A stretch of DNA of 64,000 nucleotides from Escherichia coli (GCF_013315695.1 NZ_CP054353.1), one strand, 5' to 3'; shown: positions 8,274 through 51,965, counted from the stretch's first letter. The notes: generated by a model not told the origin, from the sequence alone. Made by a program: numbers and translations.

Positions 8274-8281
8274 GGTAAACC

Positions 8282-10330: not shown

Positions 10331-10352
10331 ATTCAGTGCTCACTCAATATCA

Positions 10353-12427: not shown

Positions 12428-12634
12428 ATGGAACTTTACAGAGAATATCCTGCATGGCTTATCTTTTTACGCCGTACTTATGCGGTTGCAGCGGGCGTTC
12501 TGGCGCTGCCTTTCATGCTTTTCTGGAAAGACCGCGCCCGCTTTTACAGCTACCTGCACCGCGTCTGGTCGAAAACCAGCGAGAAACCGGTGTGGATGGA
12601 TCAGGCCGAAAAGGCAACTGGTGATTTTTACTGA
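12428..12634 (+). CDS. ybfA: Small inner-membrane protein YbfA (DUF2517)
   Basis: 68 aa [39 protein letters not shown]... matches YbfA as recalled. Confidence 0.8.
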
Positions 12635-12656
12635 TTGCTAAATATTACGTTCAAAG

Positions 12657-12694
12657 AAAACCGCCAGCGGAAACGCTGGCGGTTTTCTTTTTTC
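12657..12694 (+). terminator. Rho-independent terminator after ybfA
   Basis: AAAACCGCCAGCG-GAAA-CGCTGGCGGTTTTCTTTTTT hairpin plus T-run. Confidence 0.6.
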
Positions 12695-33652: not shown

Positions 33653-33751
33653 ATATCTGTAATAAGAAATAGCCCTCGCCGCTTCCCTCTACAGGAATGG
33701 CGAAGGGCTGTCGGTTTCGACATGGTTGGCCATCATATGATGGCCTTTTTT
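33653..33751 (+). ncRNA. sdhX: Probable 3'UTR-derived sRNA of the sdh-suc operon (SdhX/RybD-like), ending at the sucD terminator
   Basis: About 100 nt between the sucD stop and a strong terminator (GGCCATCATATGATGGCC + T6, 33728-33751); assignment from memory of the K-12 arrangement, not a sequence alignment. Confidence 0.45.
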
Positions 33752-33857
33752 ATTCGGGCACTAATCTGAAAAGTTTGCCCACTGCTTTTTTTCCCCATCC
33801 TCTGCGCAATAATGCCCGGCGAAATATCTCCTCTCCGTTCTGTAAAAGGATTTATAC

Positions 33858-35051
33858 ATGAAGAAAATTGTTCTGCCGGTTGCTCTGGCCCTGATGGGTA
33901 TAAATGCGGACGTTTATGCGGCCGATGTAAAGATCGATATTTTAAGTGCAACAGTGAAAGATAAACGCATTGAGGGGGCATCGGTGACGCTGCAACGCAA
34001 TGGCGCACAATCTGTTTCTGGCACCACAAATGCCTCGGGCAGCATTAATCTGGGCTCTTCCTTTGCCGATGATCAAGATGCTTTGTTAATCGTCAAAAAA
34101 GAGGGCTATTCTAATCTGGTGGTCAAATGCCCGTGTGCGGGCATGACTTATGCGATTAGTCCGGTAATGACTAGTCTGGATGGCATGCGTGTCGTATTGA
34201 GCTGGGGCGAAAAGCCTTTTGATCTTGATTCGCATTTGATCTTCCCTGGCGGACATATTTATTTTGATAGTAAAGAGGGGACTGATGCCAATCTGGATGT
34301 TGATGATACGGATAGCTATGGACCAGAAACTGTCACTATCAGCAAAAAGCATTTTGGCGAAAGTTACATCTATGCCGTGCAGGACTATAGCAATAAAGGG
34401 TTGCCCAACAGTAATTATCTCTCTGCCAGTAAGGCAAAAGTGTTTGTTTATGTAGGGGGCTCCCTGGTGCGTAGTTATAGTGTCCCTGCTGGAAAACGAG
34501 GGAACATCTGGACCGTGTTTAAACTCAATCCAAACGGCGAGTTTGAAGATATCAACTCTGTTACCACCGCCAATTTTAACGACACCACATTAGGCGTCAG
34601 GGATTTAGCCACTGTGATAATGCCTGCGACGGGTTCTTCAACTCCGGCTTCACCTGCGATGCAAAACAGTGGATATACTCAACTGGCAAGAAAATATAAT
34701 CGTGAAGGCGAAGCTGTTTACAAAACCGGTCAACTTGAGCAAGCCATTCAACTCTTCCAACAGGCAACAGAATTAGACGGCAATTACGGTCAGGCATTTA
34801 GTAACCTGGGTCTGGCTTATCAGAAAAATGGCAACATCGCGGAAGCGATTTGGGCAAATCGTAAAGCGATCTCGTTAGCCAGTGGAGCAAATGCGGCGAC
34901 AACGCGCGCTAACTCCTATTATAACATTGCCAAAATTTATGAAACTGCAGGACAGAACGCTGATGCATTGCAGCATTATCAACTCGCTTATGCGGAAAAA
35001 AATAAGCCCTCTTATGAAGAGGCCATCGCACGGGTAAAAGCGAAAATGTAG
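33858..35051 (+). CDS. Secreted protein with YfaP-like (DUF2135-type) central domain and C-terminal TPR repeats
   Basis: 397 aa; Sec signal peptide MKKIVLPVALALMGINADVYAA; motif LSWGEKPFDLDSHL...DANLDVDDTDSYGPETVTI as in YfaP-family proteins; C-terminal TPR-like repeats (AIQLFQQATELDGNYGQAFSNLGLAYQKNGNIAEAI...). First gene of the island. Confidence 0.7.
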   Translation: MKKIVLPVALALMGINADVYAADVKIDILSATVKDKRIEGASVTLQRNGAQSVSGTTNASGSINLGSSFADDQDALLIVKKEGYSNLVVKCPCAGMTYAISPVMTSLDGMRVVLSWGEKPFDLDSHLIFPGGHIYFDSKEGTDANLDVDDTDSYGPETVTISKKHFGESYIYAVQDYSNKGLPNSNYLSASKAKVFVYVGGSLVRSYSVPAGKRGNIWTVFKLNPNGEFEDINSVTTANFNDTTLGVRDLATVIMPATGSSTPASPAMQNSGYTQLARKYNREGEAVYKTGQLEQAIQLFQQATELDGNYGQAFSNLGLAYQKNGNIAEAIWANRKAISLASGANAATTRANSYYNIAKIYETAGQNADALQHYQLAYAEKNKPSYEEAIARVKAKM

Positions 35052-35428
35052 CGGTTAGCAAACAGGAGGCTATGTGGTGTTAGCCTCCTTACCCCCAGGC
35101 CAGTGGGAATATAGTAATCATCGTTTTTAACATTCAACGTCCAGATTCTGCTTGAGCGTAAAAACAAGTCTTTAGATATTTTATAAATGATGAAGGGCTG
35201 GAAAGTGGTTGATGTCACCGACTCACGATCGTTATCGCCAGCAAAGCTTTTTTGCCATTGCACCAGACGCACCTTCAACCATTTTGGCGACGAATCAACT
35301 GCTACCGCCACCAGGCTTGTTTGCCATTTTCCCGTACCTAATTCGTCGCTTGCCGCACTGTTGGCTGTAATCAATGGCCCAATGCCCAACCAGATACTTC
35401 TATATCCGATTGGGTTTTGTTAATTGCG

Positions 35429-36025
35429 TTACCCCTTAAACGTTAACCTCGGTCGAAATCTGACCGCTGGCTGAATTAATCCGGCTTCTTGTTGGGCTTC
35501 GATAACCGGACCAATATCTTTATAAGCAGCTGGCGCTTCTTCAATACGCCGTTCTTCGCGCAATGTGACGCATTGCCACGGCAACGTTGACTCTGCAGTC
35601 GCGCGTGAGCGCATGGCCTGCCGACGCTGGCTGCGTCCTGCTCCGTGACTGCAAGACCACAGCCACTCCGGGTTGCCGCAACCAACCGCAAGCCAGGAAT
35701 AATCACCCATGGAACCGGGGATTAACGCCAGATCGCCCGCGCGTGCCGGTGTTGTGGCCACCACAGCGCCAACGGGGACGCCATTGCCGGGATGAAAATC
35801 TGGCGTCGCGCACGTCTGGCGCACATAACCTGGGTGGTCTGGTAGCTTCACTTCTGCAAAATCAAGCAGTTGTGTTACTGCTTTTTCTTCCAGCGGCAGT
35901 TCGTCCGGCAGCAGTACGCGGGCACTGGCACCTGATGGACGAGATAATGAAACAATATTGTTGGCGCGGGAAAGTTGGATCCCTTTGCGCAGAAAGGCTT
36001 TATCAAGCCTTGAAAGATGATGCAT
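35429..36025 (-). CDS. Shortened RtcB-like protein (RNA-ligase family motifs, central region absent)
   Basis: 198 aa; N-terminal PDFHPGNGVPVGAV resembles the RtcB PDxHxG metal-binding motif, and the C-terminus (IPGSMG...CSHGAGR...AYKDI...FKG) resembles the RtcB C-terminus, but the motifs are about 50 aa apart instead of about 300. Confidence 0.55.
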   Translation of the reverse strand: MHHLSRLDKAFLRKGIQLSRANNIVSLSRPSGASARVLLPDELPLEEKAVTQLLDFAEVKLPDHPGYVRQTCATPDFHPGNGVPVGAVVATTPARAGDLALIPGSMGDYSWLAVGCGNPEWLWSCSHGAGRSQRRQAMRSRATAESTLPWQCVTLREERRIEEAPAAYKDIGPVIEAQQEAGLIQPAVRFRPRLTFKG

Positions 36026-36614
36026 AACGCTGTCCTGAAATATAGACGTTAAACAACCCCCTGTATTGCGAGGGTAATTTTGTCTTTCCGGTCAGCAGCC
36101 AGCAAAAGGGAAAGAAAACGCGCGTAGTGTATGTGGCGATAGCAAGTTTTACAAGTGGTAAATCTGGCTTATTGTTAAAGAGGAATTATCTTTTGTGAAG
36201 TCTTTTAAGGCCATGACTCATTCAATTTAACCGGACATAGATAATATATAACATAGGGTATATAAATTTATCATTGTATACTTGTCATAATTCAAGTTGC
36301 ATGTGCTGCATCGATGTTCGCTCACCCAGGTCACTTACTTATGTAAGTTTCTGGAAATTCATTATTTGTTCCCTTCCTGCAACTTGACTTATTTAGAGTA
36401 TATTCATGTATATGAATAATATTCTTGCAATAATAGCTTTAAAGTATTGCATGCGGATAACTGAGGTGAAATTCCTGTTTTAGGATTATTGTCACTTTAT
36501 TTTCCTGGTTAGACATATAGCTGACTGGTTTGTTTATTTGAATTATGATATTCATTAGTGCTACTGTTTTTTATAAAATAATTTTTGAATTGTTATTTTT
36601 TCACGGACGGCATT

Positions 36615-37520
36615 ATGCGAGGAAAAATACCTAAAACGGAACTGCTGGTGACTTTTGAGGTCGTCGCACGTCATGAAAGTTATACCAGAGCGGCAGAGGA
36701 GTTAGCGTTAACCCAAAGTGCAGTATTCAGACAAGTAAGTGCGCTGGAGGAATTTTTACATACTCCGTTATTTTCACACTCTAAAAAACGCATTTTTCTT
36801 AATGATGCAGGGAAGTATTACCTGGGGATAGTAAAAGAAACATTAAATAAGCTGGAACGCGATACCAATACCATTATGACCTGGCAGCCTACGGTTCAGG
36901 TTATTGAACTTGCCGTTAATCCTACTTTTAGTACCCACTGGTTAATCCCAAATTTACATGAATTCACAAAGTTACATCCCGATATTATTGTTAATATTCA
37001 TTCTTTAGCTAATAACGGCGACTTTCTTAATCGGGAGTACGATGCTGTCATTATGCGCGAAAATTTTTGCGCGCCCTGGGCGGAAGTAGAGTATCTCTTT
37101 GAAGAGGAGATTTTGCCGGTATGCAGCGGCAGTTTGCTTGCAATGTCCGATCAAAAACTGTCAGTGGCAGAACTGCTTACTGAGTTACCACTTCTGCATC
37201 AAAGCACCCGTATTACTGGCTGGGAAGAGTGGTTTGCTTTATCTGGCGTTAGCAGTCCGCTGGTCAATAACGGACCACGTTTCGATTTGCTTTCAATGCT
37301 GATTGCCGCCGTGCGCTCTAATCTCGGCGTGGCGCTGTTACCACGGTTCGCTATTCAACATGATTTGGATAGTGGCGATATGGTGATTCCCTGTGATGTG
37401 CCTATTCGTACCGGTAATCGTTTTATTATGACGTGGCAGGAAGAGAAGTCTGACTCACCGCACTTGCAGCAATTTCGTGAATGGTTGCTGGCGAAATCGG
37501 TCGTACCGCAGGAGATGTAA
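36615..37520 (+). CDS. LysR-family transcriptional regulator
   Basis: Start chosen at MRGKIPKTELLVTFEVVARHESYTRAAEELALTQSAVFRQVSALEE (N-terminal HTH) followed by a substrate-binding domain; divergent from the RtcB-like ORF and convergent with the cobA-like gene. Confidence 0.8.
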   Translation: MRGKIPKTELLVTFEVVARHESYTRAAEELALTQSAVFRQVSALEEFLHTPLFSHSKKRIFLNDAGKYYLGIVKETLNKLERDTNTIMTWQPTVQVIELAVNPTFSTHWLIPNLHEFTKLHPDIIVNIHSLANNGDFLNREYDAVIMRENFCAPWAEVEYLFEEEILPVCSGSLLAMSDQKLSVAELLTELPLLHQSTRITGWEEWFALSGVSSPLVNNGPRFDLLSMLIAAVRSNLGVALLPRFAIQHDLDSGDMVIPCDVPIRTGNRFIMTWQEEKSDSPHLQQFREWLLAKSVVPQEM

Positions 37521-37553
37521 AACCTGCGCCTGGCGGGATGCCAGGCGCAGTTA

Positions 37554-38156
37554 TTACCAGTCGATACCCGGCTGGGCCTGAATGCCGTTATCAAAAGCAT
37601 GTTTGACGGGGCGGATTTCGCTTACCGTATCCGCCATTTTTAATATCTGACTGTGGCAACCGCGTCCGGTGACAATGACACTTTGTTGTGCCGGGCGGTT
37701 TTGCAGAGAAGCGATCACTTCTTCGGTGTCCAGATAATGGTAAGCCAGCATATAGGTCAGCTCATCAAGCACCACTAAGTCGTAACGCTTGTCAGCCAGC
37801 ATCCGTTTGCTTTCCGACCAGACCTCTTTCGCCGCGTCGATATCCGCTTGCCGGTTCTGTGTCTCCCAGGTAAAACCGGTTCCCATAATATGAAACTCAA
37901 CCCCCAGCGGCTGGAGAAGGTTGTATTCGCCGTTGTCCCATTGCCCCTTGATGTACTGCGCAACCCCCACCGTTTTGCCATGACCCACCGCGCGCGTCAC
38001 AGTACCAAACGCGGCAGTGGATTTCCCTTTGCCGTTGCCGGTGAAAACAATCAAGATCCCTTTTTTCTCTATCGCCGCCGCGACGCGCGTATCGACCTGT
38101 TCCTTCAATTTCTGCTGGCGCTGCACATGCCGTTCAGTTGAAATTCGCGCTTCCAT
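37554..38156 (-). CDS. Cob(I)alamin adenosyltransferase (BtuR/CobA family paralog)
   Basis: 200 aa; P-loop GNGKGKSTAA and overall strong similarity to BtuR as recalled (...VFTGNGKGK.TAAFG...RAVGHGK.VGV.Q.IKG.W.NGE...); probably supplies adenosylcobalamin for glutamate mutase. Confidence 0.85.
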   Translation of the reverse strand: MEARISTERHVQRQQKLKEQVDTRVAAAIEKKGILIVFTGNGKGKSTAAFGTVTRAVGHGKTVGVAQYIKGQWDNGEYNLLQPLGVEFHIMGTGFTWETQNRQADIDAAKEVWSESKRMLADKRYDLVVLDELTYMLAYHYLDTEEVIASLQNRPAQQSVIVTGRGCHSQILKMADTVSEIRPVKHAFDNGIQAQPGIDW

Positions 38157-38165
38157 TCATTTTCC

Positions 38166-39818
38166 TTAATGTCCCGCAGGGCAACTGGCGCAGCGGTGTT
38201 TCTGCTCAAACTGACTAAAGAAATTATTGCCTTTATCATCTACCAGGATGAATGCGGGTAAATTTTCCACTTCCATCATCCACACCGCTTCCATACCCAG
38301 CTCCGGGTATTCCAGGCAACGCAGACTTTTGACATATTCTTGCGCCAGTAACGCAGCTGCACCGCCAATACTTCCCAGATTGAAGCCGCCATGTTTGTGA
38401 CAGGCATCGGTGACCTGCTGGCTGCGGTTACCTTTCGATAACATCACCAGACTGCCGCCAGCCGCCTGGAAGGTATCGACATAACCGTCCATTCGACCGC
38501 CCGTGGTTGGACCCAGTGAACCGCAGGCCATGTTCTCCGGTGTTTTCGCCGGGCCAGCGTAATAGACAATATGATGCTTCAGGTAATCCGGCATCGGTTC
38601 GCCGCTATCCAGCCGCGCTTTTATTTTGGCGTGGGCGATATCGCGCGCCACTACGATGGGACCACTTAACGACACGCGGGTGCCTACCGGTAATCTGGCG
38701 AGATCCTGCATCACGTCACGCAACGGACGATTTAGATCCAGCTGTACATGTTGCGCGTGATTTTCTTCCCGCAGTGAGGCTGGAATATATTGCCCCGGAT
38801 TGTGTTCGAGTTTTTCCAGCCAGATACCGTGCTTGTTAATTTTTGCTTTGATATTGCGATCCGCAGAACAGGAGAGCGTCATAGCTATCGGGCAAGAGCC
38901 ACCGTGACGCGGCAGACGAATGACGCGAATATCATGAGCGAAATATTTACCCCCAAATTGCGCACCAATACCAAATTGCTGACTGGCCTCGAGCAATACT
39001 TTTTCCAGCTCAATATCACGGAATGCTTGTCCTTGCTCGTTTCCGCTGGTGGGCAAATTGTCGTAATATTTCGTTGAGGCCAGCTTGGCAACTTTTAAGG
39101 TTTGATCGGCTGAAAGCCCTCCGACGACAAAGGCGATGTGGTAAGGCGGGCAGGCAGCGGTGCCCAGCGATTTCATTTTTTCGATTAAAAATGCGGTCAG
39201 TTTTTCTGGTTGCAATAGGGATTGGGTTTCCTGATAAAGCGCGGCTTTATTGGCAGAGCCGCCCCCTTTATTAATACAGAGAAAATGGTACTCATCACCA
39301 GCGACGGCGCTGATATCAATCTGCGCCGGGAGATTGGTTTGCGTATTGACTTCGGTAAACATATCCAGTGGCGCATTTTGTGAAAAGCGCAGATTATTTT
39401 CCTGAAAAGTGGTGTAAATGCCTTTGCTTAAGGCTTCAGCGTCGTTACCTCCGGTCCATATCTGTTGCCCTTTACTGGCAACAATAGTTGCGGTGCCGGT
39501 ATCCTGACAGTTGGGTAATACCCCTTTTGCTGAGACTTCAGCATTACGTAATAACTGCAACGCAACGTATTTATCATTACTACTGGCGTGCGGATCGTTA
39601 AGAATGCTGGCGACCTGTTGCAAATGAGCGGAACGTAAGAAAAAAGAGGCTTCATAAAATGCCTGCCGGGCAAGCAGCGTTAATGCTTCAGGAGCGATTT
39701 TTATCACTTCTTCGCCGTCTAATTCCGTTACTGTAATATGTTGATCGCTAATTAATGTATATTCTGTACCGTCTTTATTTTGTAGAAACGGTTCTTGCCA
39801 GATAAATGGTTTGGACAT
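38166..39818 (-). CDS. fumD: Class I (Fe-S) fumarate hydratase paralog; mesaconase/fumarase
   Basis: 550 aa, collinear with FumA/FumB ([11 protein letters not shown]...[12 protein letters not shown]...[14 protein letters not shown]...[13 protein letters not shown]...). I recall a mesaconase named FumD from an E. coli O157:H7 glutamate-mutase cluster; symbol given on that basis. Confidence 0.88.
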
Positions 39819-39925
39819 ATTTCACTTTTCACCTTAAACGTTAGTTTTACTTAATTGCCGTCTAACTTCATGATCCGGCTTATAAAAATGCGTAGTCATT
39901 GGCTTCTGATTGCTTAAGATCCCCC

Positions 39926-41206
39926 TCAGGGCAGAGCAACGTTCGATTCATTGGGTTTTAATGCTTTACCCCGACAGCCCTCGCCGAAATGTTCGCCTTC
40001 CCACCGACTCACCATCGCAGCGCCCATTGCGTTGCTCATGACGTTTGTCGCGGAACGCCCCATATCAAGGAACGGATCAACGCCCATCAGCAAGATCAGC
40101 CCCGCTTCCGGAATATTGAACTGGTTGAGCGTGGCGGCGATAACCACCATTGAGGCGCGTGGTACGCCAGCCATTCCTTTCGAGGTCAACATCAGGATCA
40201 ACAGCATGGTGATTTGCTCACCGATGGATAAATGGATATTGCAGGCCTGGGCGATGAAAACTGTGGCGAAGGAGCAGTAGGCCATTGATCCAACGAGATT
40301 AAATGAGTAGCCAATGGGTAAGACAAAGCTGGCAATTTTGGGGGAAACGCCAAATTGCTCCAGTTTTTCAAGCGTTCCCGGAAAAGCCGCTTCAGAACTG
40401 GATGTGGTAAATGCCAGCAGGGCGGGTTCCGAAAGGGCACGGGTCAGGCGTCTGATGCAGGGGCCGACATAAACGATGGCCAGACCGATAAGCAGCACCC
40501 AAAGTAACAACATGGTGAAATAAAATTCACCCATAAAGATCCCGGCGCTCACCATAACTGCCAGTCCTCGTTCAGCAATCAATGCTGAAATAGCGGCGAA
40601 TACGGTCAGGGGAGCGAAGAGCATGACGTAGCCAGTGAGCTTTAACATGGCATGTGCCAGCGAATCTAAGGCGTGAACGATGGCGCTGCCTTTCTCACCA
40701 ATCGCCGTCAGGCTACAGCCGAGGAAAATTGAGAACACCACGATTTGCAAAATTTCATTGTGCGCCATGGCATCGACAATGCTGGTGGGGAAAGCATGCG
40801 AAATAAATACTTTTAGTGTAAAGGGTTCTGACGCGACCACTCCGGTGGTTTCGGCACCGTGTGCAACAAAATTAATTCCTGTGCCTGGCATGAAGAAATT
40901 TACCGTTATCAAGCCTAAGGCAATTGACAGCAATGAGGCGCAAATAAATAAAAAGAGTGTTTTAGAAAAAATACGACCAAGGGCTTTGGCATCTCCCATT
41001 TTAGCTATACCTACCACCAGGGTAGAGACCACTAACGGAGCGATAATCATTTTTATCAGTCGTAAGAAAATCGTCGTGAATATCGATATTTCTTGCGCAT
41101 AGAGTTTTGCGGTTTCCGGTGAAGCAGTGTTATTGAGCACTACGCCGATAATCATTCCAAGTACCAGCGCCAAAAGAATCATCGTGGTTAAACTTATTTT
41201 CTTCAT
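39926..41206 (-). CDS. Dicarboxylate/amino acid:cation symporter (DAACS; GltP/DctA-like)
   Basis: Start at MKKISLTTMILLALVLG (ATG 41206, GGAGG RBS); polytopic membrane protein with DAACS-type conserved segments; substrate (glutamate, mesaconate or citramalate) is not decidable from sequence. Confidence 0.85.
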   Translation of the reverse strand: MKKISLTTMILLALVLGMIIGVVLNNTASPETAKLYAQEISIFTTIFLRLIKMIIAPLVVSTLVVGIAKMGDAKALGRIFSKTLFLFICASLLSIALGLITVNFFMPGTGINFVAHGAETTGVVASEPFTLKVFISHAFPTSIVDAMAHNEILQIVVFSIFLGCSLTAIGEKGSAIVHALDSLAHAMLKLTGYVMLFAPLTVFAAISALIAERGLAVMVSAGIFMGEFYFTMLLLWVLLIGLAIVYVGPCIRRLTRALSEPALLAFTTSSSEAAFPGTLEKLEQFGVSPKIASFVLPIGYSFNLVGSMAYCSFATVFIAQACNIHLSIGEQITMLLILMLTSKGMAGVPRASMVVIAATLNQFNIPEAGLILLMGVDPFLDMGRSATNVMSNAMGAAMVSRWEGEHFGEGCRGKALKPNESNVALP

Positions 41207-41366
41207 TTTTTCCTCCATCAGGTGCACGGCGATAAATCAGAATCAGGAGAAGTAGATGCCTGAATAGAGATTCAGGCATCTACCTGCTATTACAACCTTA
41301 CAAATAGCTGAAGTGTTGAACTGCAATAAGTGACGGGATGTCAGTTGGCTAAAAGTATTCGGATTT

Positions 41367-41684
41367 TTACAAATCGAAACTCATATTTAATAAAGGTGCA
41401 TGTTGCTGTGCACCATAGACATCATTGTCACCTACATTCCCGGAGATAATATCTCGTGGCATGACGATTTTTACTGCGTTAGAAGGATCAAACCAGACAA
41501 TACGGTGAATAAAGTCAGGTTCAACATGATATAAGCGCGCAATCAGTTCTGGGGTTAATTGCCCTGATGATTTAACTCGCTCATAGTTTTCTTTCGTTTT
41601 AAATAAAATATCTAAAACCAGTTCGTAAGGTCCGGCATTTTTCGAACGAATGACTTGCGCCAGTGAGACAATTGACTGTTTCAT
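41367..41684 (-). CDS. Small conserved protein, DUF4387-like partner of the AtuA-like protein
   Basis: 105 aa; start overlaps the stop of the upstream DUF1446 ORF by 4 nt (translational coupling); family assignment from memory. Confidence 0.55.
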   Translation of the reverse strand: MKQSIVSLAQVIRSKNAGPYELVLDILFKTKENYERVKSSGQLTPELIARLYHVEPDFIHRIVWFDPSNAVKIVMPRDIISGNVGDNDVYGAQQHAPLLNMSFDL

Positions 41685-43051
41685 GCCTGAACTCCTTCTG
41701 GCGTCACCTGTTCAATATGGAAATCAAAACGCAGAGCGTCGTTGGCTTCAATCAGGTGATATATGGAAAATTCGTATACCGGCCCGCCCTGGATATCAGA
41801 AGGGGAGAACGGGAACGCCAGATTGCCTGCGGTAGCGATGCGGTTTTCATAGCCGTAGTGCAGCATGGTAGAGCGCACCAGCGAGCAAACGCTATTGGCA
41901 ATTTCCTGGGTCGGTGCAACTACATCAAGGACAATCCCCAGCTCATGCCCGGCAGTTTGCATCGGTTCATGGTCGCCCATCACCCCGTTTTTGCCGTACA
42001 GGTGGAAATTGATGCGAATGCTGTCATCGTCGAGCGACAGGTTACGCCAAACGCTGGTTTTGACTTCATCGATGATTTTATCGATCCCGGCGATCATGAT
42101 CGGGTCGCGCGTTCCTGCGATGGTCAGACAGCGGAAGCCCACCCGTCGCGCACCTTCCAGTTTCAGGGCATACGGCGTTTCTTCATGCTTAGAACCGCTG
42201 ACGTACACTTCGCCGTCATTGACCGCTTTAAATGTGCAGCCTTTCAGGTTCAACACGCCGCCAGGTCCAGGCAGGAAGTAGGGATCGGATTTCTCATACA
42301 GTGTGTGTGCAGCCGCTGACGTTTCGGTAAATTTACGCTTCGGATTAAATGTCTTCAGCGTAAAGCCGTTGTCATCAATGATGCCCATCGCACAGTCAGA
42401 GCCTGAGCCGGGCGTTGCGGCGATTGCCGCGCATTCAAGGATTTTCCCACAATGCAGCGCCAGACCTTCATCAAAGCCTTGCATGATCGGGAGCGCAGCA
42501 AAGCAGGCCGGGTCGTAAGCGCGCCCGCCCAGCACCACTTGCGCGCCTTCTTTCAGCGCCCGCTGGAAGGGTTCGATGCCCATTTGCGCGACGATATACG
42601 TACTTTCGTCAATCGCGTCGTGGGTTAACGGCGGGACAAAATCCAGCGCCGTGATTTTGCCGTTATCCAGCGCCTGGTGGACGATGGCTTTGTCAACGTC
42701 TGCCGGGATCAACGCCATCGAGAACGAGAGGTGCTCTTCCTGGGCAATCTCATGAATTATTTCTCGGCACCACTCCAGGTGTGGTGCGGCACCAGAACCG
42801 CCAGCTGTTCCGATCACCACCGGTATATTATTTTGCACGCCTGCGGTGATCATATAGCGCAGATCGCGCTTGACCCCTGCGCGATCGGTAAACGGTTTGC
42901 CTGCCCCGAGGTAGTGGGGGCCTGGATCGGAAGAGCCTGCATCAACGGCGATCAGATCGGGCGATTCTGCCATCGCTTTGCGGAAGCTCTCTTCCGGGAA
43001 TCCATACCCGAGGATTGCCGTTGGCGATAAGACTTTAAAAGAACGAGCCAT
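41681..43051 (-). CDS. AtuA-like protein (DUF1446 family), function unknown
   Basis: 456 aa; N-terminal G-Y-G-F...D-A-G-S region resembling the DUF1446 signature; starts 3 nt after the methylaspartase stop. Confidence 0.65.
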   Translation of the reverse strand: MARSFKVLSPTAILGYGFPEESFRKAMAESPDLIAVDAGSSDPGPHYLGAGKPFTDRAGVKRDLRYMITAGVQNNIPVVIGTAGGSGAAPHLEWCREIIHEIAQEEHLSFSMALIPADVDKAIVHQALDNGKITALDFVPPLTHDAIDESTYIVAQMGIEPFQRALKEGAQVVLGGRAYDPACFAALPIMQGFDEGLALHCGKILECAAIAATPGSGSDCAMGIIDDNGFTLKTFNPKRKFTETSAAAHTLYEKSDPYFLPGPGGVLNLKGCTFKAVNDGEVYVSGSKHEETPYALKLEGARRVGFRCLTIAGTRDPIMIAGIDKIIDEVKTSVWRNLSLDDDSIRINFHLYGKNGVMGDHEPMQTAGHELGIVLDVVAPTQEIANSVCSLVRSTMLHYGYENRIATAGNLAFPFSPSDIQGGPVYEFSIYHLIEANDALRFDFHIEQVTPEGVQA

Positions 43052-43054
43052 TTG

Positions 43055-44296
43055 TTAATCCTTAGCCTGCAACAGCGCGATAGTACGATTCATTTCGTTG
43101 AAGACGATATCGAGGCCTTCGTCAAAGCCCATCCCTGGCTTTACCAGCATACGCATAGGGCGAGCGGCAAGGGCGACGTGGACACAGGTGCGGGCACTGA
43201 CATCAGTTTCATTGCAGGTGCCGCCCTGGTACGCTTCCATGCTGTGGCTGTTGCAGTAAAGAACCGCATCGACGATGTTGTGAATACTGCCCAGATCCGG
43301 GGTTTTGATTTGCACCATGTGACAACTGGCGGCATCAGTGAAATCAACAATATCCTGGTAGGTGTTACACCATTCATCGGCCACAATTTTCACGCCGGAA
43401 CCGAGGCGCGTCAGCTCTTTGGTAATCGCGGTCAGCAGGCGAATTTGATCGGGCTTGTTACCGGCATCGACCGGCCCTTCAATGTAGAGCGGCAGGCCTT
43501 GCGCTTCTTTTTCCAGGCTGGCGATGTATTGCGCACAGCGAAGCGGATCCATATCGAAGATCAGGCCGATAGTGCCGTATACATCGATGTGCAGGGTTGG
43601 GTGGTAGCGTGCGCTGGTGCGCTTGCTCAGAATACGATCCGACAGCCAGCGGACATATTCGCGCAGTTTTTCACCTTTAAAGCCCAGTTTCTCTTCGACG
43701 TTATTAATCAGTGCATGGGGCAGCACGTCGATGCCCTTAAGGATCATCTTATCGACGGCGATATATCGATCGTCCCCGCTCTGACCAAATAATGGAATGG
43801 ATTCCGCCACGCGTGGCAACTGCCATTCATCACAGACCACTTCAGTTTTCAGACGGCCGGTTGCCAGCGCGGTAGCATCAAGCAGCGCCTGTGATAATCC
43901 GTAGCGCACGGCGGTATGCAGCAAGTTGCCGTCAATACGCAATTTGTCGAAGAAACGGGCATTCGGCAGGAAAGCATCCACATCGCGGCCTATCAGTAAT
44001 GGCTTGATATGGTCGTTGAGGAACGGAATAAAGTGCTCAGCGAGGAACAGTGGATCGCGACCACCTGCCCCGGAATACTGTACGGCAGCACAGTCACCTA
44101 CGGCGACCGCGCCGTTTTCCAGAATCAACTGTACCGATACGCACTCCCCGGCCTGACGAACGGCGTTAAACCCCTGTGTTACCGGCTCCCCGGTATAAAA
44201 AAAGCCGTCATGACCCGCTCCGTTTTTTATCGCCTGCTGGTCATCGAAATAGAATGAGGAGTAGCCAGCAGTGAACAGAGCCTGTTTTATTTTCAT
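43055..44296 (-). CDS. 3-methylaspartate ammonia-lyase (beta-methylaspartase)
   Basis: 413 aa; very close to clostridial MAL as recalled: ...YFDDQ.AIK.GAGHDGF.YTG...AVQYSGAGGRDPLFLA...QSGDDRY..VDKMI.K..DVLPHALINNVEEKLG.KGEKL...HMVQIKTPDLG...GGTCNET. Confidence 0.92.
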   Translation of the reverse strand: MKIKQALFTAGYSSFYFDDQQAIKNGAGHDGFFYTGEPVTQGFNAVRQAGECVSVQLILENGAVAVGDCAAVQYSGAGGRDPLFLAEHFIPFLNDHIKPLLIGRDVDAFLPNARFFDKLRIDGNLLHTAVRYGLSQALLDATALATGRLKTEVVCDEWQLPRVAESIPLFGQSGDDRYIAVDKMILKGIDVLPHALINNVEEKLGFKGEKLREYVRWLSDRILSKRTSARYHPTLHIDVYGTIGLIFDMDPLRCAQYIASLEKEAQGLPLYIEGPVDAGNKPDQIRLLTAITKELTRLGSGVKIVADEWCNTYQDIVDFTDAASCHMVQIKTPDLGSIHNIVDAVLYCNSHSMEAYQGGTCNETDVSARTCVHVALAARPMRMLVKPGMGFDEGLDIVFNEMNRTIALLQAKD

Positions 44297-45741
44297 TATG
44301 GTCTTCCTATTAATTTACTGTGGGATACAGCATTGATGTCATCTACAACCATCTGGAATGTCGGTTGGCGTCCTTCAAAGCGTGCGCGTTCCGCAACGTA
44401 ATCGTGGTGGAGGTCGAGAATATCTTTTGGCAATGGAACGGCTCCGGCTTCCAGTACGCGTATCGCGCCGGTGTTGTCACGGACCGGAAGAATTTTGCCC
44501 GCGTTGCAGGCGGCTGGCGCAAACGGCACATCCAGTACGCCCGCTTCAAATGCCAGCACCGTACCGCGCGCAATATCACCATTACCCAGTTCGAACACTT
44601 TATTCAGTACCGCGTGAACCTCGCTCTTAATCAGTTCAATTTCCAGTTCAACCGCAGGGCACGGCGGGAATTTCTGCTCGTTGACCATGTTGAGCATCTG
44701 GCGGGAGGCTTTCAGCCCCTGAATGTTGGCAGCGGCAGTCGGGATGCCCCAGGCTTCGTGCGGACTTTTGGTGATGACTTTGGTGGCACCAGACATCCCC
44801 GCGACGGCTGCGCCCCAGGAGATAATAGCGAACGCTTTCGATTCGTCTTCCGGAAAGCCGCCCATCCACTGGTGAAACACGGTACTTAATTCATAGTCGG
44901 TATAGCCATAGCTCTGAAAATATTCGTGTGCAAGTTCACGCAGAGACTGGATCGCCGCAACATCCTGCGTCAGGCTGCCGACCTGTCCATAACCAACGGT
45001 GATAGATTTCACACCCTGTTCCAGCGCCAGTAATCCTTCGATTATCGCGATAGAGTGCGAGATAAACGGCGGGATCAGGGTACCCGTTAGTGGGCCAAAC
45101 GGTTCGCGGTTGATGCGGATCCCGTGTTCTTCATACATCCCCATTAAACGGTCGCAGTACTGCCAGTCGCGGATCGATTTTTCCAGCGTTACGCGCTTGG
45201 CATACGGAATGTTGTAGGAAATGCCGCCGCCTTCATAACTGGTAAAGCCGCTGGCCATCGAGATTTCAGCCAGCAGACGCGCATCTGGCGTGCCGTGGCG
45301 GATCTGTAGCGGTTTTTGCAAAGTTTCGGTGAGGCGACGGCAAGCTGCGACGCCGTGGTTAACGACCGGTAAACCGTTCAGTTTAGAGGTTCCGGCTTCG
45401 ATGGATTTTTTAATCCCTACAGCCGCTTCTTCGTACCGATTCAGACGGGTATATGCGTCGATGGTGCTCGGCAGCAGATCGCATTCTTCTTGTAGTGTTT
45501 TCAGTAGTTCGATGTGTTCGTCCATCAGCGCCACGCCTGCGCGCGGTTGGCTAAGAGTTTTACCTTCCTTGTCTGCTTTCAGCAGGGCAAGAGAGAAGCG
45601 TTTATGCTCAGGAATGGTTTGTTGGTATTTAACGCCATCTTCAAAGTTTTCAACATCCTTGCCGGTTTCCCAGGTTTTCAGTACCTGTTGCCGCTCGGTC
45701 ATGAATTCGTCATGGGTTAATTTCTTATTTCGAAGTTCCAT
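44296..45741 (-). CDS. Glutamate mutase epsilon (E, catalytic) subunit
   Basis: 481 aa; collinear with clostridial GlmE/MutE (MELRNKK...QPRAGVAL.DEHIELL...LPSTIDAYTR.NRYE...GTPD.RLLAEI...EGGGISYN.PYAK...FQMV.DDI.AV). Confidence 0.92.
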   Translation of the reverse strand: MELRNKKLTHDEFMTERQQVLKTWETGKDVENFEDGVKYQQTIPEHKRFSLALLKADKEGKTLSQPRAGVALMDEHIELLKTLQEECDLLPSTIDAYTRLNRYEEAAVGIKKSIEAGTSKLNGLPVVNHGVAACRRLTETLQKPLQIRHGTPDARLLAEISMASGFTSYEGGGISYNIPYAKRVTLEKSIRDWQYCDRLMGMYEEHGIRINREPFGPLTGTLIPPFISHSIAIIEGLLALEQGVKSITVGYGQVGSLTQDVAAIQSLRELAHEYFQSYGYTDYELSTVFHQWMGGFPEDESKAFAIISWGAAVAGMSGATKVITKSPHEAWGIPTAAANIQGLKASRQMLNMVNEQKFPPCPAVELEIELIKSEVHAVLNKVFELGNGDIARGTVLAFEAGVLDVPFAPAACNAGKILPVRDNTGAIRVLEAGAVPLPKDILDLHHDYVAERARFEGRQPTFQMVVDDINAVSHSKLIGRP

Positions 45742-45759
45742 TGATTGCAGCCTTAATTG

Positions 45760-47148
45760 TTATAGGGTTAAGCATTGAATACTGGTGCGCGCGGCGGCCA
45801 GCGGATCGACTCTGGCGACGTTTGCCAGCAGTGGTAATAGCCCCCGGGAATCGCGGTAATATTCAAATTCGGTCGGTAAGAGAATGCGTTTACCGTCGTC
45901 GTTTAACTCGCGGTATTTCAACCAGTGATGCATATCGAACTGACTGGCACGCGAGAGCCATCCGCCGGATCCGACGACTTTACGCACGGTTGTCAGGTCA
46001 CGTCCCATCTGTAAATCGACATTGCCGACGCAGGTGCAGACCTCTTTTTTGGTGCCCGCATGTCTTTCGGTGGCATAACCCACACACAGTCCGGCCAGGA
46101 CTGTATCGAAATATTTTTCTTCTGCATTCGCGGGTAAGTAGTCGGGATGAGCGACTAGATGACGGAGGTAATGATAAAAAGCGTCCAGCTGTGCGGGTTG
46201 CTGAGCAAAATTCACATTGACTAACTCTTTCGCACTTTCACCAACCACCATTGCCGAGACGCGCATTCCCAGATCGCCTTCCACCGTCCGTTTCACGAAG
46301 GGTTCCGGTACGCCGTGTAAAACGGTGTCGGGCGAGAGCGTGTTGGCACAGGCGGAATAGACATCGGTGGTTGCGCCACCCATGTCGATCAGTATGAACT
46401 CTTTCCAGCTGTGATCGACATTACTGATTGCCTTAACCAGTTCAAAGACTGTCCACGGTGTCGGCATTGGTTCTTCGCCTGTTTTATCAACAACGACATC
46501 CAGCCCTTTCCCTTTAACGATGCGTTTAAGGAATATGTCGCAGATAGCCTGGCGTGCAGCTAAAGGGTTCGGATGGTCAAGATCGGGCAGAACGTTGTCG
46601 ACGATGGTCAGGTCTTTATGCCCTAGGATCTCCTGCACCTCGTCCTGAATATCCCGGTTTCCGGCATAAATAATGGCGCAGTCGAGTTTGGATTCTGCCA
46701 GCACACGGGCGTTATTCAGGCCGTAGCTTTCTTCTCCGCCGTCGGTGCCGCCGGTGAACAAGAGAATATCGGGCTGCGTTTCTTCCAGTGCCTGGATATC
46801 ACGGCGGTTCAGCTTGTAGGAGTAATATTGCGCAATTTTAGCCCCCGCAGAGTGAGCGGTTACTTTCGCGGTTTCCAGGGTGATAGAAGGCACCAATCCC
46901 ATTGCGGCAACCGCCAGCCCACCTTTGGCAGAGGAGGAATACTTCAATGCAACCTCACCGTTGTTAAACAGGGGGAGGGTATTATCTACGTTTAACACCA
47001 GGTTCAGGCTGGAGAAAAACCCCTTCGCCAGATGATGGGTGGTGGTTGGGGTCAGTACGTGGTTAACCAACGTTAACGCGTCCCCCTCCCGGGCGAAGAG
47101 GGCTGCTTTGGTCCACGTCGATCCAATATCGACAGAGACGATTTGCAT
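45760..47148 (-). CDS. Glutamate mutase-associated protein L (GlmL/MutL-type putative chaperone or reactivase)
   Basis: 462 aa; N-terminal [18 protein letters not shown] (ASKHA/actin-like ATPase start); sits between the S and E subunit genes as in clostridial mutS-mutL-mutE. Confidence 0.8.
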   Translation of the reverse strand: MQIVSVDIGSTWTKAALFAREGDALTLVNHVLTPTTTHHLAKGFFSSLNLVLNVDNTLPLFNNGEVALKYSSSAKGGLAVAAMGLVPSITLETAKVTAHSAGAKIAQYYSYKLNRRDIQALEETQPDILLFTGGTDGGEESYGLNNARVLAESKLDCAIIYAGNRDIQDEVQEILGHKDLTIVDNVLPDLDHPNPLAARQAICDIFLKRIVKGKGLDVVVDKTGEEPMPTPWTVFELVKAISNVDHSWKEFILIDMGGATTDVYSACANTLSPDTVLHGVPEPFVKRTVEGDLGMRVSAMVVGESAKELVNVNFAQQPAQLDAFYHYLRHLVAHPDYLPANAEEKYFDTVLAGLCVGYATERHAGTKKEVCTCVGNVDLQMGRDLTTVRKVVGSGGWLSRASQFDMHHWLKYRELNDDGKRILLPTEFEYYRDSRGLLPLLANVARVDPLAAARTSIQCLTL

Positions 47149-47597
47149 CAGATTGCCTCTTCAAGAATACGAGTATCAACGTCATGACGTTGGTTGATAT
47201 CGTGTGCCATCAGCTGACAAACATCTTCTAAGTCATGACTTGGGGCAAAGACGCGATCAAATCCCATCTCTTTGAATTTGGTTTCCACGTCAGCGAAGTC
47301 ATGTTTTCCGACCACCAGGTTACCGCCCACATAGAGCAGGATGTCCCCCAGTCCACGCTCGATGCAGCGTTCGCGCATGCCCAGACAGTCGATATCGCCA
47401 TGCCCATAGATAGAGGAGACGACAATCGCGTCAGCGCCAGTTTCAATGGCCGCATCAATATATTCGTCCTGGCTGACCATTACGCCCAGATTAATGACTC
47501 TGAAGCCATGGTTGCTAAAAACGCGGTCCAGAACTTTATTGCCTACTGCATGGCAGTCCGCGCCAATAACGCCAATCACAAGTGTTGCTTTCTTCAT
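47148..47597 (-). CDS. Glutamate mutase sigma (S, B12-binding) subunit
   Basis: Start at ATG 47597 ([27 protein letters not shown]...), 149 aa; B12-binding DxHxxG motif; AAGGA RBS. Track ORF with the longer N-terminus is rejected. Confidence 0.9.
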
Positions 47598-48143
47598 GGG
47601 TAATCCTTTGTAAGACAGAGAGTAAAATAAGTTACACACGTCGTATTTATGGCCGTTCATAACGGCACAGGTTTAATATCACAGGAGTGTCTTTATCTGA
47701 CCGTAATGTTGCAATTGATCTATTTTCAAAATGTCTTTCGGGAAATGATTGTTTAAAGTATGTTGTTAAATTCTCATGTTAATTCAGTGTGTTATGTCAA
47801 CTAATGTCATGAATGTTAAATTTTTAAAATTAACTTGATTTGGTGTATTGAGGTATTTGTGATCTACTTCTAATTTGCATTTTAGTGATATGGGTTTAGC
47901 CATGAGTAAATGCATTTCATAAAATTTAAGTCGAATTTCACTGCAATTCATCTCTGCTTAATGTAAAAATAATGTTGAAAATAACAAATGGTTAATGATT
48001 CATGCGAATTATGACCTTAGTTAGCTCTTTTGATTTTTCGTAAAAAAGAGAGGTACATGAAGGTGCTACCAGTATGAGTAACGTTAATCAAAGGTTTTAT
48101 TACGTCTGGCAATAACGCAGGCCATTTTCGCGACTGGGTGGAT

Positions 48144-48566
48144 TTAATCAGTATAATCCTCATACAATAGTTCACGATTAACTGAACCGTTAACGGGGAT
48201 TTGGTGTTGAAATTTAGAAATGGCGGAGTCAATTAATGAAGACAATATCGAAAAAATGACAGTGTCAGAATTAATTTCAATTAATCCTTCTCGTTGTTGA
48301 CCAAAAAAGATATTTATCTTGATTTCATTTGTACTACGGCAATCAATATGTAGTAATTTTTGATCGCTGAGATTTTCTGTTTCATAAATGTTTTTGGCGA
48401 TAGTCGGATGTATTGATGCCAGACATCTGCTCAGATAAGCCAGATCCTTTAGGGAACACCCCGCTGAGTAGAGGATGTCAGAGAATTTTTGTGTGTTAAC
48501 TGTTGTCTCTGAAGCGTATGTTGCATTGACAGGAAGGGTGTTGAAAGAGATTTGAGATGGGAGCAT
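48144..48566 (-). CDS. Hypothetical protein (low-GC, no recognisable domain)
   Basis: 140 aa ORF 80 bp downstream of the 314-aa ORF on the same strand; no signal peptide or TM helix apparent. Confidence 0.4.
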   Translation of the reverse strand: MLPSQISFNTLPVNATYASETTVNTQKFSDILYSAGCSLKDLAYLSRCLASIHPTIAKNIYETENLSDQKLLHIDCRSTNEIKINIFFGQQREGLIEINSDTVIFSILSSLIDSAISKFQHQIPVNGSVNRELLYEDYTD

Positions 48567-48646
48567 TATTTAAATCTTTCCGTGAGTAATAAAAATTAAT
48601 CCCCGGGCATTGTTTAGCAATATTTGCCACAGGTAATATATAAAAA

Positions 48647-49591
48647 TTAAAGTATTTGATTGGCATCGGTTAACTGATCAATAACCAGTGCCAGATTGGT
48701 AAACATTTTGAAAAAGCGATACTGGCTCGGAATATCTCTTTCAAAGACGAAACATTCAATGTCATTGTTTGAAAAATAAAGGACTAGTGTTGCTGATTCG
48801 TCAGGAAAAATATGGAAATATATCTGGTTACCAGAAGGAGGATAGTCCAGAAGAAGGGTATCTTTGCCCGTCACATACCTGTTGTGGTCGTGGATGCTGC
48901 GCTCACACTTCATCAGAGGTGTCATGATACTCATGTATTCATCTGATGTTAATATATTAAAATCACCATCCATTTTAAAGAAACGATAAAGTAACAGTAC
49001 ATCCTCTTGCGTAACCGGTTCGTTTGTTTTTAGAGGGAAATAAGTGGGAACCAGAAGATGAGGTTCTAATCTATTTTGTTGAGCGCTATAACTAAATTTG
49101 AACATAAATTCCGGATCGCTCATCAATTGAGCGACATAATTATGCCTGGCTTCAAAAATTTTAACTTTTATCAGGTTAAATAAGTCTGTTTCGTCATCCT
49201 GTATTAAAAGACATTGGCCATAGCAGCCAGGCTTTTTTTCATTATAAGCAGAAACGGTTATTCTGTCAGGAGTGTCAACGTTATATCCAAAAGCCAGATA
49301 GTGACCGTCCTCATCGAGATTTGTTTCCAGGTTATTTAAATTTATCACATGAAGTGTTTGCAATGCTGATTCAATGAGCTGTTGACTCTCTGAGGTAAAT
49401 GTTTCGCGCTGCGTTGTATAAAGTGTATCGATTCCAACGACTATCCGATATGGGTCAAGGATGGCGGCAATCATCTTTATTACCTGCACAGCCACGGGTG
49501 ATGTCATTGATTCGTTATCTGTTTTTAGAGGATCATTAGATGGCCAACCTGAGAAGCGATTGACAGCCGAACCGATATTATCAGGACTCAT
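48647..49591 (-). CDS. Hypothetical protein (low-GC, no recognisable domain)
   Basis: 314 aa ORF in a strongly AT-rich stretch (roughly 38-40 percent GC by eye); acidic, apparently soluble; no family recognised. Confidence 0.5.
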   Translation of the reverse strand: MSPDNIGSAVNRFSGWPSNDPLKTDNESMTSPVAVQVIKMIAAILDPYRIVVGIDTLYTTQRETFTSESQQLIESALQTLHVINLNNLETNLDEDGHYLAFGYNVDTPDRITVSAYNEKKPGCYGQCLLIQDDETDLFNLIKVKIFEARHNYVAQLMSDPEFMFKFSYSAQQNRLEPHLLVPTYFPLKTNEPVTQEDVLLLYRFFKMDGDFNILTSDEYMSIMTPLMKCERSIHDHNRYVTGKDTLLLDYPPSGNQIYFHIFPDESATLVLYFSNNDIECFVFERDIPSQYRFFKMFTNLALVIDQLTDANQIL

Positions 49592-50045
49592 AGCAGCAAC
49601 CTCATTGTAATCAAGCGAGGCGCTGAGCGTACTCGGCTATAGAAAAACTAACTTGCAAAAATCGCTCATTTTTCATTTATCAGGCGAAAGTGGTCTCTGT
49701 TCACTCAGAAACAATCACTCCCGCTAAGTCATACCTGTTTCATCGATACACTTAAGTGATTATTACTAATGAAACAATAACATAACGGGCTTACGGCCGG
49801 TGCTCATAAAGGCAACAATCAATTAACTTTGATAAAAATATGTTATGTAAAATAGCAACAAATTGGCTAATCTAATCAATTGGTATTATAAAAAGTGGAT
49901 AAGGCGGTTCTGTTAAATAAAACACTGGTTTTTTATCTATACCTTTTCATTGTAATAATTGTGTTGCATAAATATTTCACAATAAATTAACAATAAAATC
50001 ACCAATGATCTATGGTTTATACATAATTAACATATTTGGTTGGTT

Positions 50046-50059
50046 TTGATATAAATCAA
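50046..50059. promoter_or_regulatory. FNR-type box (TTGAT-N4-ATCAA) in the cydAB upstream region
   Basis: Perfect palindrome TTGATATAAATCAA about 340 bp upstream of cydA; a second half-matched site TTGATCACTGTCGAA lies near 50150. Confidence 0.5.
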
Positions 50060-50396
50060 TTTTTAATTCTTGAAAAAAATCTGCAAAACACGATAAATTG
50101 TCGTAGATCAAATTGGTGAGATCGTGACAATTTCGCTATAAATTGATCACTGTCGAAAAATGCAAATTTGCTCAATAAAAACCTGTTTATTGTAAGGATT
50201 TTGCGGCGTAATATAATTACGGGATCAATTTGGTTTATTCATTAACATATTTGTAACTTTTTTATCATTGTCTTTTCCTCTTTTGATGAAATGGCAACGA
50301 TAGAGGCGAGCAAATAATTTTGTATTGGGGCATGCGTGTGACCCTTTCTAACGGGGTTCACTCTCGGAGTCTTCATGCGATGAGCAAGGAGTCATG

Positions 50397-51965
50397 ATGT
50401 TAGATATAGTCGAACTGTCGCGCTTACAGTTTGCCTTGACCGCGATGTACCACTTCCTTTTTGTGCCACTGACGCTCGGTATGGCGTTCCTGCTGGCCAT
50501 TATGGAAACGGTCTACGTCCTTTCCGGCAAACAGATTTATAAAGATATGACCAAGTTCTGGGGCAAGTTGTTTGGTATCAACTTCGCTCTGGGTGTGGCT
50601 ACCGGTCTGACCATGGAGTTCCAGTTCGGGACTAACTGGTCTTACTATTCCCACTATGTAGGGGATATCTTCGGTGCGCCGCTGGCAATCGAAGGTCTAA
50701 TGGCCTTCTTCCTCGAATCCACCTTTGTAGGTCTGTTCTTCTTCGGTTGGGATCGTCTGGGTAAAGTTCAGCATATGTGTGTCACCTGGCTGGTGGCGCT
50801 CGGTTCAAACCTGTCCGCACTGTGGATTCTGGTTGCGAACGGCTGGATGCAAAACCCAATCGCGTCCGATTTCAACTTTGAAACTATGCGTATGGAGATG
50901 GTGAGCTTCTCCGAGCTGGTGCTTAACCCGGTTGCTCAGGTGAAATTCGTTCACACTGTAGCGTCTGGTTATGTGACTGGCGCGATGTTCATCCTCGGTA
51001 TCAGCGCATGGTATATGCTGAAAGGTCGTGACTTCGCCTTCGCTAAACGCTCCTTTGCTATCGCTGCCAGCTTCGGTATGGCTGCCGTTCTGTCTGTTAT
51101 TGTTCTGGGTGATGAATCTGGTTACGAAATGGGCGACGTGCAGAAAACCAAACTGGCTGCTATTGAAGCCGAGTGGGAAACGCAACCTGCGCCTGCTGCC
51201 TTTACTCTGTTCGGCATTCCTGATCAGGAAGAGGAGACGAACAAATTTGCGATCCAGATCCCTTACGCGCTGGGCATCATTGCAACGCGTTCCGTGGATA
51301 CTCCAGTTATCGGCCTGAAAGAACTGATGGTGCAGCATGAAGAACGCATTCGTAACGGGATGAAGGCGTACTCTCTGCTCGAGCAACTGCGTTCTGGTTC
51401 TACCGACCAGGCGGTTCGTGACCAGTTCAATAGCATGAAGAAAGACCTCGGTTACGGTCTGCTGCTGAAACGCTATACGCCAAACGTGGCTGATGCGACT
51501 GAAGCGCAGATTCAACAGGCAACCAAAGACTCCATTCCGCGTGTAGCGCCGCTGTACTTCGCGTTCCGTATTATGGTGGCGTGTGGCTTCCTGCTGCTGG
51601 CAATCATCGCGCTCTCTTTCTGGAGTGTCATCCGCAACCGCATTGGCGAGAAAAAATGGCTGCTGCGCGCCGCGCTGTACGGTATTCCGCTGCCGTGGAT
51701 TGCTGTAGAAGCGGGCTGGTTCGTGGCTGAATATGGCCGCCAACCGTGGGCTATCGGTGAAGTGCTGCCGACAGCTGTGGCGAACTCGTCACTGACCGCA
51801 GGCGATCTCATCTTCTCAATGGTGCTGATTTGCGGCCTGTATACCCTGTTCCTGGTGGCAGAATTGTTCTTAATGTTCAAGTTTGCACGCCTCGGCCCAA
51901 GCAGCCTGAAAACCGGTCGCTATCACTTTGAGCAGTCTTCCACGACTACTCAGCCGGCACGCTAA
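50397..51965 (+). CDS. cydA: Cytochrome bd-I ubiquinol oxidase subunit I
   Basis: Start at second ATG ([28 protein letters not shown]), 522 aa. Confidence 0.97.

Follow-up and report, generated by a model that had tools for sequence, protein, structure and literature searches.

We analyzed a 64,000-nt stretch of Escherichia coli DNA (GCF_013315695.1, NZ_CP054353.1; hereafter, the window) and found, on its minus strand, two adjacent open reading frames (ORFs) that, with a probability of about 0.9, encode CmlA and CmlB, the subunits of a citramalate lyase that requires neither coenzyme A (CoA) nor acyl carrier protein (ACP). The two genes are as follows:

41681-43051, minus strand: cmlA, predicted large subunit of citramalate lyase, AtuA/DUF1446 family (ORF of 456 aa)
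41367-41684, minus strand: cmlB, predicted small subunit of citramalate lyase, DUF4387 (ORF of 105 aa)

A sequence search of the Protein Data Bank (PDB) matched CmlA over its full length to chain A of entries 9ERQ and 9EVF (422/456 residues identical, 92.5%; E 9e-293) and CmlB, likewise over its full length, to chain B (88/104 identical, 84.6%; E 5e-57). Both entries were released in October 2025, and their depositors named the molecules "Citramalate lyase, subunit A (cmlA)" and "Citramalate lyase, subunit B (cmlB)". The entry titles, "Citramalate lyase - ADP - pyruvate complex" (9EVF, released 2025-10-08) and "Citramalate lyase - AMPPNP - citramalate complex", indicate that the enzyme binds citramalate together with an ATP analogue, and pyruvate together with ADP. 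By sequence, the pair is orthologous to this crystallized enzyme with its substrate and product bound, the CmlAB of Raoultella planticola. Like E. coli, R. planticola is an enterobacterium in which cmlAB occupies the same position within a glm-mal-fumD cluster, and its enzyme has the same two subunits of 456 and 105 aa with all of the clade-invariant residues. The E. coli proteins differ from those of this other host species by 34 and 16 substitutions, respectively, at variable positions; in the alignment, the columns that do not vary within the CmlA clade contained none of the 34 differences from 9ERQ chain A, and the invariant residues, which presumably serve in ligand binding or catalysis, were all retained in E. 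coli CmlA. An AlphaFold model of CmlA (predicted local distance difference test score, pLDDT, of 88) gave a template-modelling (TM) score of 0.94 to 9evf_A. Foldseek searches of the PDB with the whole CmlA model and with an N-domain model returned no significant solved relative besides 9ERQ and 9EVF. Two ideas about the N-domain were dropped on this account: that it is a TIM-barrel lyase (DRE-TIM, HpcH or isocitrate lyase [ICL]-like), since Foldseek matched only 9evf, and that it is a clear amino-acid kinase, since there was no significant match besides 9evf. As a hint to mechanism, the fold of the model would be weak at most. We infer that the activity of E. coli CmlAB would be the same as that of its characterized orthologue.

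That orthologue has been used in vivo. In a preprint of January 2026, R. planticola cmlAB, attributed there to the Berg laboratory, was expressed in an E. coli acetyl-CoA auxotroph (10.64898/2026.01.16.699985). With cmlAB and FumA, the auxotroph grew on mesaconate in a mesaconate-dependent manner, growth was lost when the plasmid was cured, and isotope labelling confirmed the route (10.64898/2026.01.16.699985). The authors describe a direct cleavage of citramalate to pyruvate and acetate within a route that they call "CoA-independent", as well as a reaction that is reversible and disfavoured by high acetate, and CmlAB worked in these cells without a CitDEF-type partner (10.64898/2026.01.16.699985). 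We also considered that the pair might be a kinase or ligase which activates mesaconate or citramalate, as an acyl phosphate or acyl adenylate, while another enzyme performs the C-C cleavage; this appears very unlikely to us. Considering the names and ligands of the PDB entries together with the behaviour of the R. planticola orthologue in vivo, E. coli CmlAB would by analogy be expected to cleave (S)-citramalate. The function of the pair can thus already be read from the PDB and the preprint. The statement in the initial annotation that the pair had no established function had therefore been overtaken by the October 2025 structures and the January 2026 preprint; its proposal of a pathway-related role, with citramalate processing named first, agrees with orthology to the CmlAB of the PDB, and nothing was found in support of the alternatives that it listed, mesaconate processing or support of the mutase or lyase.

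The assignment bears on a question left by Kronen and Berg (2015), who described the enterobacterial island to which that of the window corresponds, and in whose account the fate of (S)-citramalate remained unclear (PMC4682846). In their work, extracts with high activities of citrate lyase, isocitrate lyase or the methylcitrate pathway failed to cleave citramalate, and citramalyl-CoA lyase genes were missing from most enterobacteria (PMC4682846). CmlAB answers the 2015 question of how enterobacteria with an island for glutamate mutase, methylaspartase and FumD dispose of (S)-citramalate. Combining established knowledge with the gene assignments of this analysis, GlmS/GlmE, with GlmL and CobO for B12 upkeep, would convert L-glutamate to (2S,3S)-3-methylaspartate, from which Mal would remove ammonia to give mesaconate; FumD would hydrate mesaconate to (S)-citramalate, and CmlAB would cleave the latter to pyruvate and acetate. 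CmlAB then concludes glutamate breakdown by the methylaspartate route, in place of the clostridial CitDEF-type complex, and no CoA- or ACP-dependent lyase complex is needed on the full path from glutamate to pyruvate, acetate and ammonia.

The CitDEF citramalate/citrate lyase (with CitC, CitX and CitG; EC 4.1.3.22 / 4.1.3.6) catalyzes the same net reaction at the same end of the pathway but is unrelated to CmlAB in sequence and fold. The acyl-carrier subunit, the phosphoribosyl-dephospho-CoA prosthetic group and the CitE- and CitF-type subunits of the classical enzyme have no counterpart in CmlAB, which binds an adenine nucleotide instead. The contrast with mal loci that lack cmlAB, which would carry citDEF, goes back to Kronen and Berg (2015; PMC4682846). 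A Pfam search of both proteins revealed no homology to CitD, CitE or CitF, which places the pair outside the CitDEF type. The initial annotation had noted that the island encodes no CitD/E/F-like genes, and tblastn with the E. coli Cit proteins supported this for the entire 64-kb window, where no significant match and no CitC/D/E/F/G homologue was found; the sole match, 29 aa of CitX at E 0.16, was at chance level. The citCDEFXG operon of this genome is located ~91 kb away. Direct cleavage of a hydroxy-di- or tricarboxylate without a thioester, with release of a carboxylic acid, is also the chemistry of isocitrate lyase and methylisocitrate lyase.

The arrangement of the two genes was exactly as initially described. 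The ATG start codon of cmlA lies 3 nt past the TAA of the methylaspartase gene, mal (the gap being CAA), the cmlB start lies within the cmlA stop codon in a 4-nt overlap (ATGA), and Shine-Dalgarno-like motifs, AAGGA and AAGGAG, occur upstream of the cmlA and cmlB starts. Because of the 3-nt gap and the ATGA overlap, cmlA and cmlB are probably co-translated with mal. The expected assignment to DUF1446 and DUF4387 was reproduced with profile hidden Markov models: CmlA matched Pfam AtuA (PF07287; E 9.6e-19, 68 bits, model positions 61-397 of 437) and CmlB matched Pfam DUF4387 (PF14330; E 2.9e-39, model positions 2-97 of 98), and the search of the two proteins against Pfam yielded nothing else. 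Annotation lags behind knowledge here. No NCBIfam model matched CmlA or CmlB, RefSeq gives the family-level names "acyclic terpene utilization AtuA family protein" and "DUF4387 domain-containing protein" at the matching locus, and public records from Salmonella enterica, Riflebacteria and Lentisphaerae still label orthologues of the large subunit "3-methylaspartate ammonia-lyase". Kronen and Berg (2015) had remarked that annotations often wrongly call the DUF1446 gene located downstream of mal a methylaspartase (PMC4682846). This repeated label and the tight translational coupling to mal would suit a pair that has no pathway step of its own and supports glutamate mutase or methylaspartase, e.g., as a chaperone, reactivase or epimerase. 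Against such a role, which we find scarcely credible, the task of reactivase is already taken by GlmL, several genomes have the pair but neither mal nor glm genes, distant family members are found in unrelated contexts, and the solved complexes contain citramalate and pyruvate, not methylaspartate.

To survey the genomic setting of the putative citramalate lyase genes, one genome per species was scanned, which gave 80 loci encoding relatives of CmlA (55-99% identity) from Enterobacterales, Betaproteobacteria, Riflebacteria, Aminicenantes, Spirochaetes, Lentisphaerae, Firmicutes and others. The neighbours found in these loci by tblastn with the window proteins were:

CmlB, directly downstream of CmlA: 80/80 loci
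Mal, directly upstream of CmlA: 71/80 loci
GlmE, within the locus: 65/80 loci
GlmS, within the locus: 60/80 loci
GlmL, within the locus: 59/80 loci

Three of the nine loci without Mal end at a contig edge. A class I fumarase homologue was present no more than 10 kb away in 47/80 loci (relaxed coverage), and homologues of E. coli CitC/D/E/F/G/X were present in none of the 80 at E 1e-5 or better. These results show that the pairing of subunit A with subunit B is obligatory and that the pair is genomically coupled to the mal and glm genes; the mainly unrelated contexts that the initial annotation had named as damaging to its proposal were not seen. Across Enterobacterales, the same gene set was retained. 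The E. coli pair accordingly combines the traits by which CmlAB can be recognized, i.e., full-length orthology, a separate DUF4387 subunit encoded downstream, the invariant residues, and association with mal, mutase and mesaconase genes without CitDEF. The E. coli gene order recurs on a Candidatus Rifleibacterium contig, which has GntR-GlmS-MutL-GlmE-Mal-AtuA-DUF4387-(unknown)-fumarase. The unknown gene, at 11712-12665 in Candidatus Rifleibacterium amylolyticum, is an ORF of 317 aa without a Pfam match that lies between the DUF4387 gene and the class I fumarase gene, and it might encode a transporter or another pathway component. In addition, the 7.3-kb contig JAIJJM010000101.1, from a metagenome-assembled genome (MAG) recorded as "MAG: Collinsella sp.", carries genes for Mal, CmlA, CmlB, the transporter, FumD and CobO, the products of which are 98-100% identical to those of the window; in all likelihood, this contig comes from E. 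coli and was wrongly binned with an actinobacterial MAG.

Several points weigh against the assignment. A search of the accessible literature turned up no primary paper with CmlAB kinetics, so that the activity is known from the names given to the PDB entries and from a single preprint, whose authors had received the genes as a gift. Both sources used proteins other than those of E. coli, in which a physiological use of the pair is presumptive. Furthermore, the preprint makes no mention of ATP, yet the crystals contain AMPPNP or ADP (10.64898/2026.01.16.699985). Because simple reversible cleavage in the former stands beside AMPPNP/ADP in the latter, the stoichiometric reaction is not fully defined. 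Finally, cmlAB occurs without mal in 6 of about 77 evaluable loci, namely in Accumulibacter, three Shewanella, Desulfospira and one deltaproteobacterial MAG, and the neighbouring genes in Shewanella (hrpA, a protease gene and fadE) and Desulfospira (corrinoid methyltransferase genes, a sensor kinase and an RND pump) gave no hint of a source of citramalate.

CmlAB provides the first structurally defined function for the large AtuA/DUF4387 family, for which an exhaustive search yielded 2,383 clusters at 50% identity (E < 0.001). In 17/17 representatives of at least 560 aa, AtuA was followed by a C-terminal CmlB-homologous domain (E 1e-14 to 1e-23); therefore, the CmlA-type (AtuA) and CmlB-type (DUF4387) parts form one functional unit, which is often fused. 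Relatives at 37-44% identity kept the pair or the fusion in other genomic contexts, one beside a TctC-type carboxylate-binding protein and a LysR regulator, one stand-alone, and one as a fungal fusion. Across 103 representatives with 31-60% identity to CmlA, the conserved polar residues were D42, R177, D180, E206, E253, E299, E370 and H432. Residues specific to the CmlA clade include D37, S40, Y47, R62, D63, H200, K203, C207, H249, R393 and H398. A 608-aa AtuA-DUF4387 fusion is encoded at 8001-10630 in the fungal assembly GCA_004117975.1, beside a fungal transcription factor and an MFS transporter; an acetate kinase gene ~7 kb away is too distant to serve as evidence and would be relevant only if the family makes acetyl phosphate.

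The founding member, AtuA, shares Pfam PF07287 with CmlA, a distant similarity (Pfam match of 68 bits, as given above). In AtuA-type proteins of ~600 aa, the DUF4387 part is fused on as the C-terminal domain; the AtuA of Thauera has 615 aa (PMC4847356). The reaction proposed for AtuA is likewise a release of acetate from a 3-hydroxy-3-substituted acid, at a tertiary carbinol, with a ketone left (PMC4847356), and it has its bond logic in common with citramalate cleavage, acetate coming off a tertiary carbinol while the ketone remains. AtuA differs from CmlAB in being a fused protein of the atu operon whose substrate is the CoA thioester of a terpenoid acid, and its activity is itself tentative. 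Since CmlA falls in the Pfam family whose founder was assigned to a CoA-ester substrate (PMC4847356), the pair might be thought to act on a CoA thioester, as a lyase or hydratase of citramalyl-CoA or mesaconyl-CoA, instead of on free citramalate. We hold this to be extremely unlikely, considering that no CoA transferase or ligase is found among the assignable genes of the E. coli operon, that free citramalate is present in the solved complex, that the preprint route using the enzyme is independent of CoA (10.64898/2026.01.16.699985), and that most enterobacteria, as mentioned, are devoid of citramalyl-CoA lyase genes (PMC4682846). Most family members probably act on 3-hydroxy-3-substituted acids other than the known ones.

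For CmlAB as a lyase of free citramalate, ATP might serve as a substrate, as a cofactor recycled during catalysis or as an effector, and a role for the nucleotide can be sketched with low confidence. In the scheme that we prefer as a guess, a transient acyl phosphate would be formed from ATP at the C4 carboxylate of citramalate, and this intermediate might make the acetate-releasing C-C cleavage feasible, standing in for the thioester of CitDEF; the phosphate could afterwards be handed back to ADP or be released as acetyl phosphate. That ATP is a catalytic participant, with cleavage by way of an acyl-phosphate enolate and possibly the same chemistry throughout the family, is a tentative idea that we consider rather doubtful. 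If it were true, nucleotide-assisted acetate release might hold for the whole AtuA/DUF4387 family, including the fused fungal forms and the TctC-linked pairs.

In E. coli, the operon has the order glmS-glmL-glmE-mal-[cmlAB]-transporter-fumD-cobO, and the following features accompany cmlAB in the window:

47148-47597, minus strand: glmS, B12-binding mutase subunit S (NF002612 and TIGR01501 equivalogs; RefSeq at the matching locus)
45760-47148, minus strand: glmL, mutase accessory/reactivating protein (NF040745 equivalog, 509 bits vs. a cut-off of 475)
44296-45741, minus strand: glmE, glutamate (methylaspartate) mutase subunit E (TIGR01503 equivalog, 864 bits)
43055-44296, minus strand: mal, methylaspartate ammonia-lyase (NCBIfam TIGR01502 equivalog, 544 bits vs. 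a cut-off of 286)
41251-41284, minus strand: hairpin, perfect 15 bp with a 4-nt loop, in the spacer between cmlB and the transporter gene (RNA fold)
39926-41206, minus strand: dicarboxylate/amino acid:cation symporter (GltP/DctA-like), 426 aa from the annotated start (subfamily-level NCBIfam, RefSeq)
38166-39818, minus strand: fumD, class I fumarase/mesaconase, mesaconate to (S)-citramalate (NF011921 equivalog, 1279 bits)
37554-38156, minus strand: cobO/cobA, cob(I)alamin adenosyltransferase, for the coenzyme B12 form used by the mutase (TIGR00708 equivalog)
37524-37550, minus strand: terminator-like hairpin at the operon end, 11 pairs, 9 of them G-C (terminator scan)
36615-37520, plus strand: LysR-type regulator, convergent with the operon (RefSeq annotation)

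Mal, mutase subunits E and S, GlmL, the class I fumarate hydratase and the CobA-type adenosyltransferase all matched NCBIfam equivalogs above the curated cut-offs. The open frame of glmS reaches 47660, beyond its annotated start at 47597. The transporter, called GltP by Kronen and Berg (2015), scored under the NCBIfam cut-offs for DctA and GltP, and the FumD counterpart of E. coli O157:H7 has been characterized biochemically as a mesaconase (PMC4682846). The hairpin at 37524-37550 was the top-ranked terminator-like site within 36000-48800. The convergent LysR-type gene is a candidate regulator of the pathway; a LysR gene stood beside the cluster in 19/80 surveyed loci, all of them enterobacterial or betaproteobacterial.

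The initial annotation had placed the pair immediately upstream of the transporter gene. The order was correct, but the genes are not directly adjacent, for a 160-nt spacer (41207-41366) with the 15-bp hairpin separates them. Folding of minus-strand RNA from 41228-41366 gave -38.5 kcal/mol (z = -4.66), which was equalled by none of 200 shuffles. The terminator scan picked up only part of the hairpin at 41251-41284, and the tract that follows it is U-rich but interrupted. This structure is possibly a partial terminator that splits the operon into two expression units, or a stabilizer of the upstream mRNA.

The pair was found in 1125/5426 complete E. coli genomes, i.e., about one-fifth carry the methylaspartate island, with 95-100% identity across carriers. 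This accessory distribution, together with the strong hairpin between cmlB and the transporter-fumD-cobO part, leads to the possibility that CmlAB is a competent citramalate lyase in an E. coli island that is cryptic or serves another use, such as scavenging of gut mesaconate/citramalate or detoxification. In E. coli O157:H7, neither methylaspartase activity nor glutamate-dependent anaerobic growth was detected, and the same study came upon no condition for expression of the island (PMC4682846), which also favours it. However, every operon gene for which an NCBIfam equivalog exists is intact and scores above its curated cut-off, the pair is nearly identical among carriers, and the gene set is conserved across Enterobacterales; we therefore regard a cryptic or diverted island as possible but not probable.

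The window was 99.988% identical over 25.7 kb to E. coli isolate AF3 (NZ_OZ547117.1), in whose record the cluster is flanked by sucABCD and cydAB. The corresponding sucD-cydA interval of K-12 presumably contains mngR-mngAB, and the window has the methylaspartate island there, at about 33650-50400. Between glmS and cydA, at 48144-49591 on the minus strand, are two ORFs of 140 and 314 aa, both "hypothetical protein" in RefSeq; this stretch at the island edge is low in GC (36.7% vs. about 50%) and may have been acquired separately. Also inside the sucD-cydA island, with a TPR-protein gene on one side and the LysR regulator on the other, a 198-aa ORF at 35429-36025 (minus strand) overlaps a short (336 nt) RefSeq "RtcB family protein" gene and appears to be the remnant of an RNA ligase gene.

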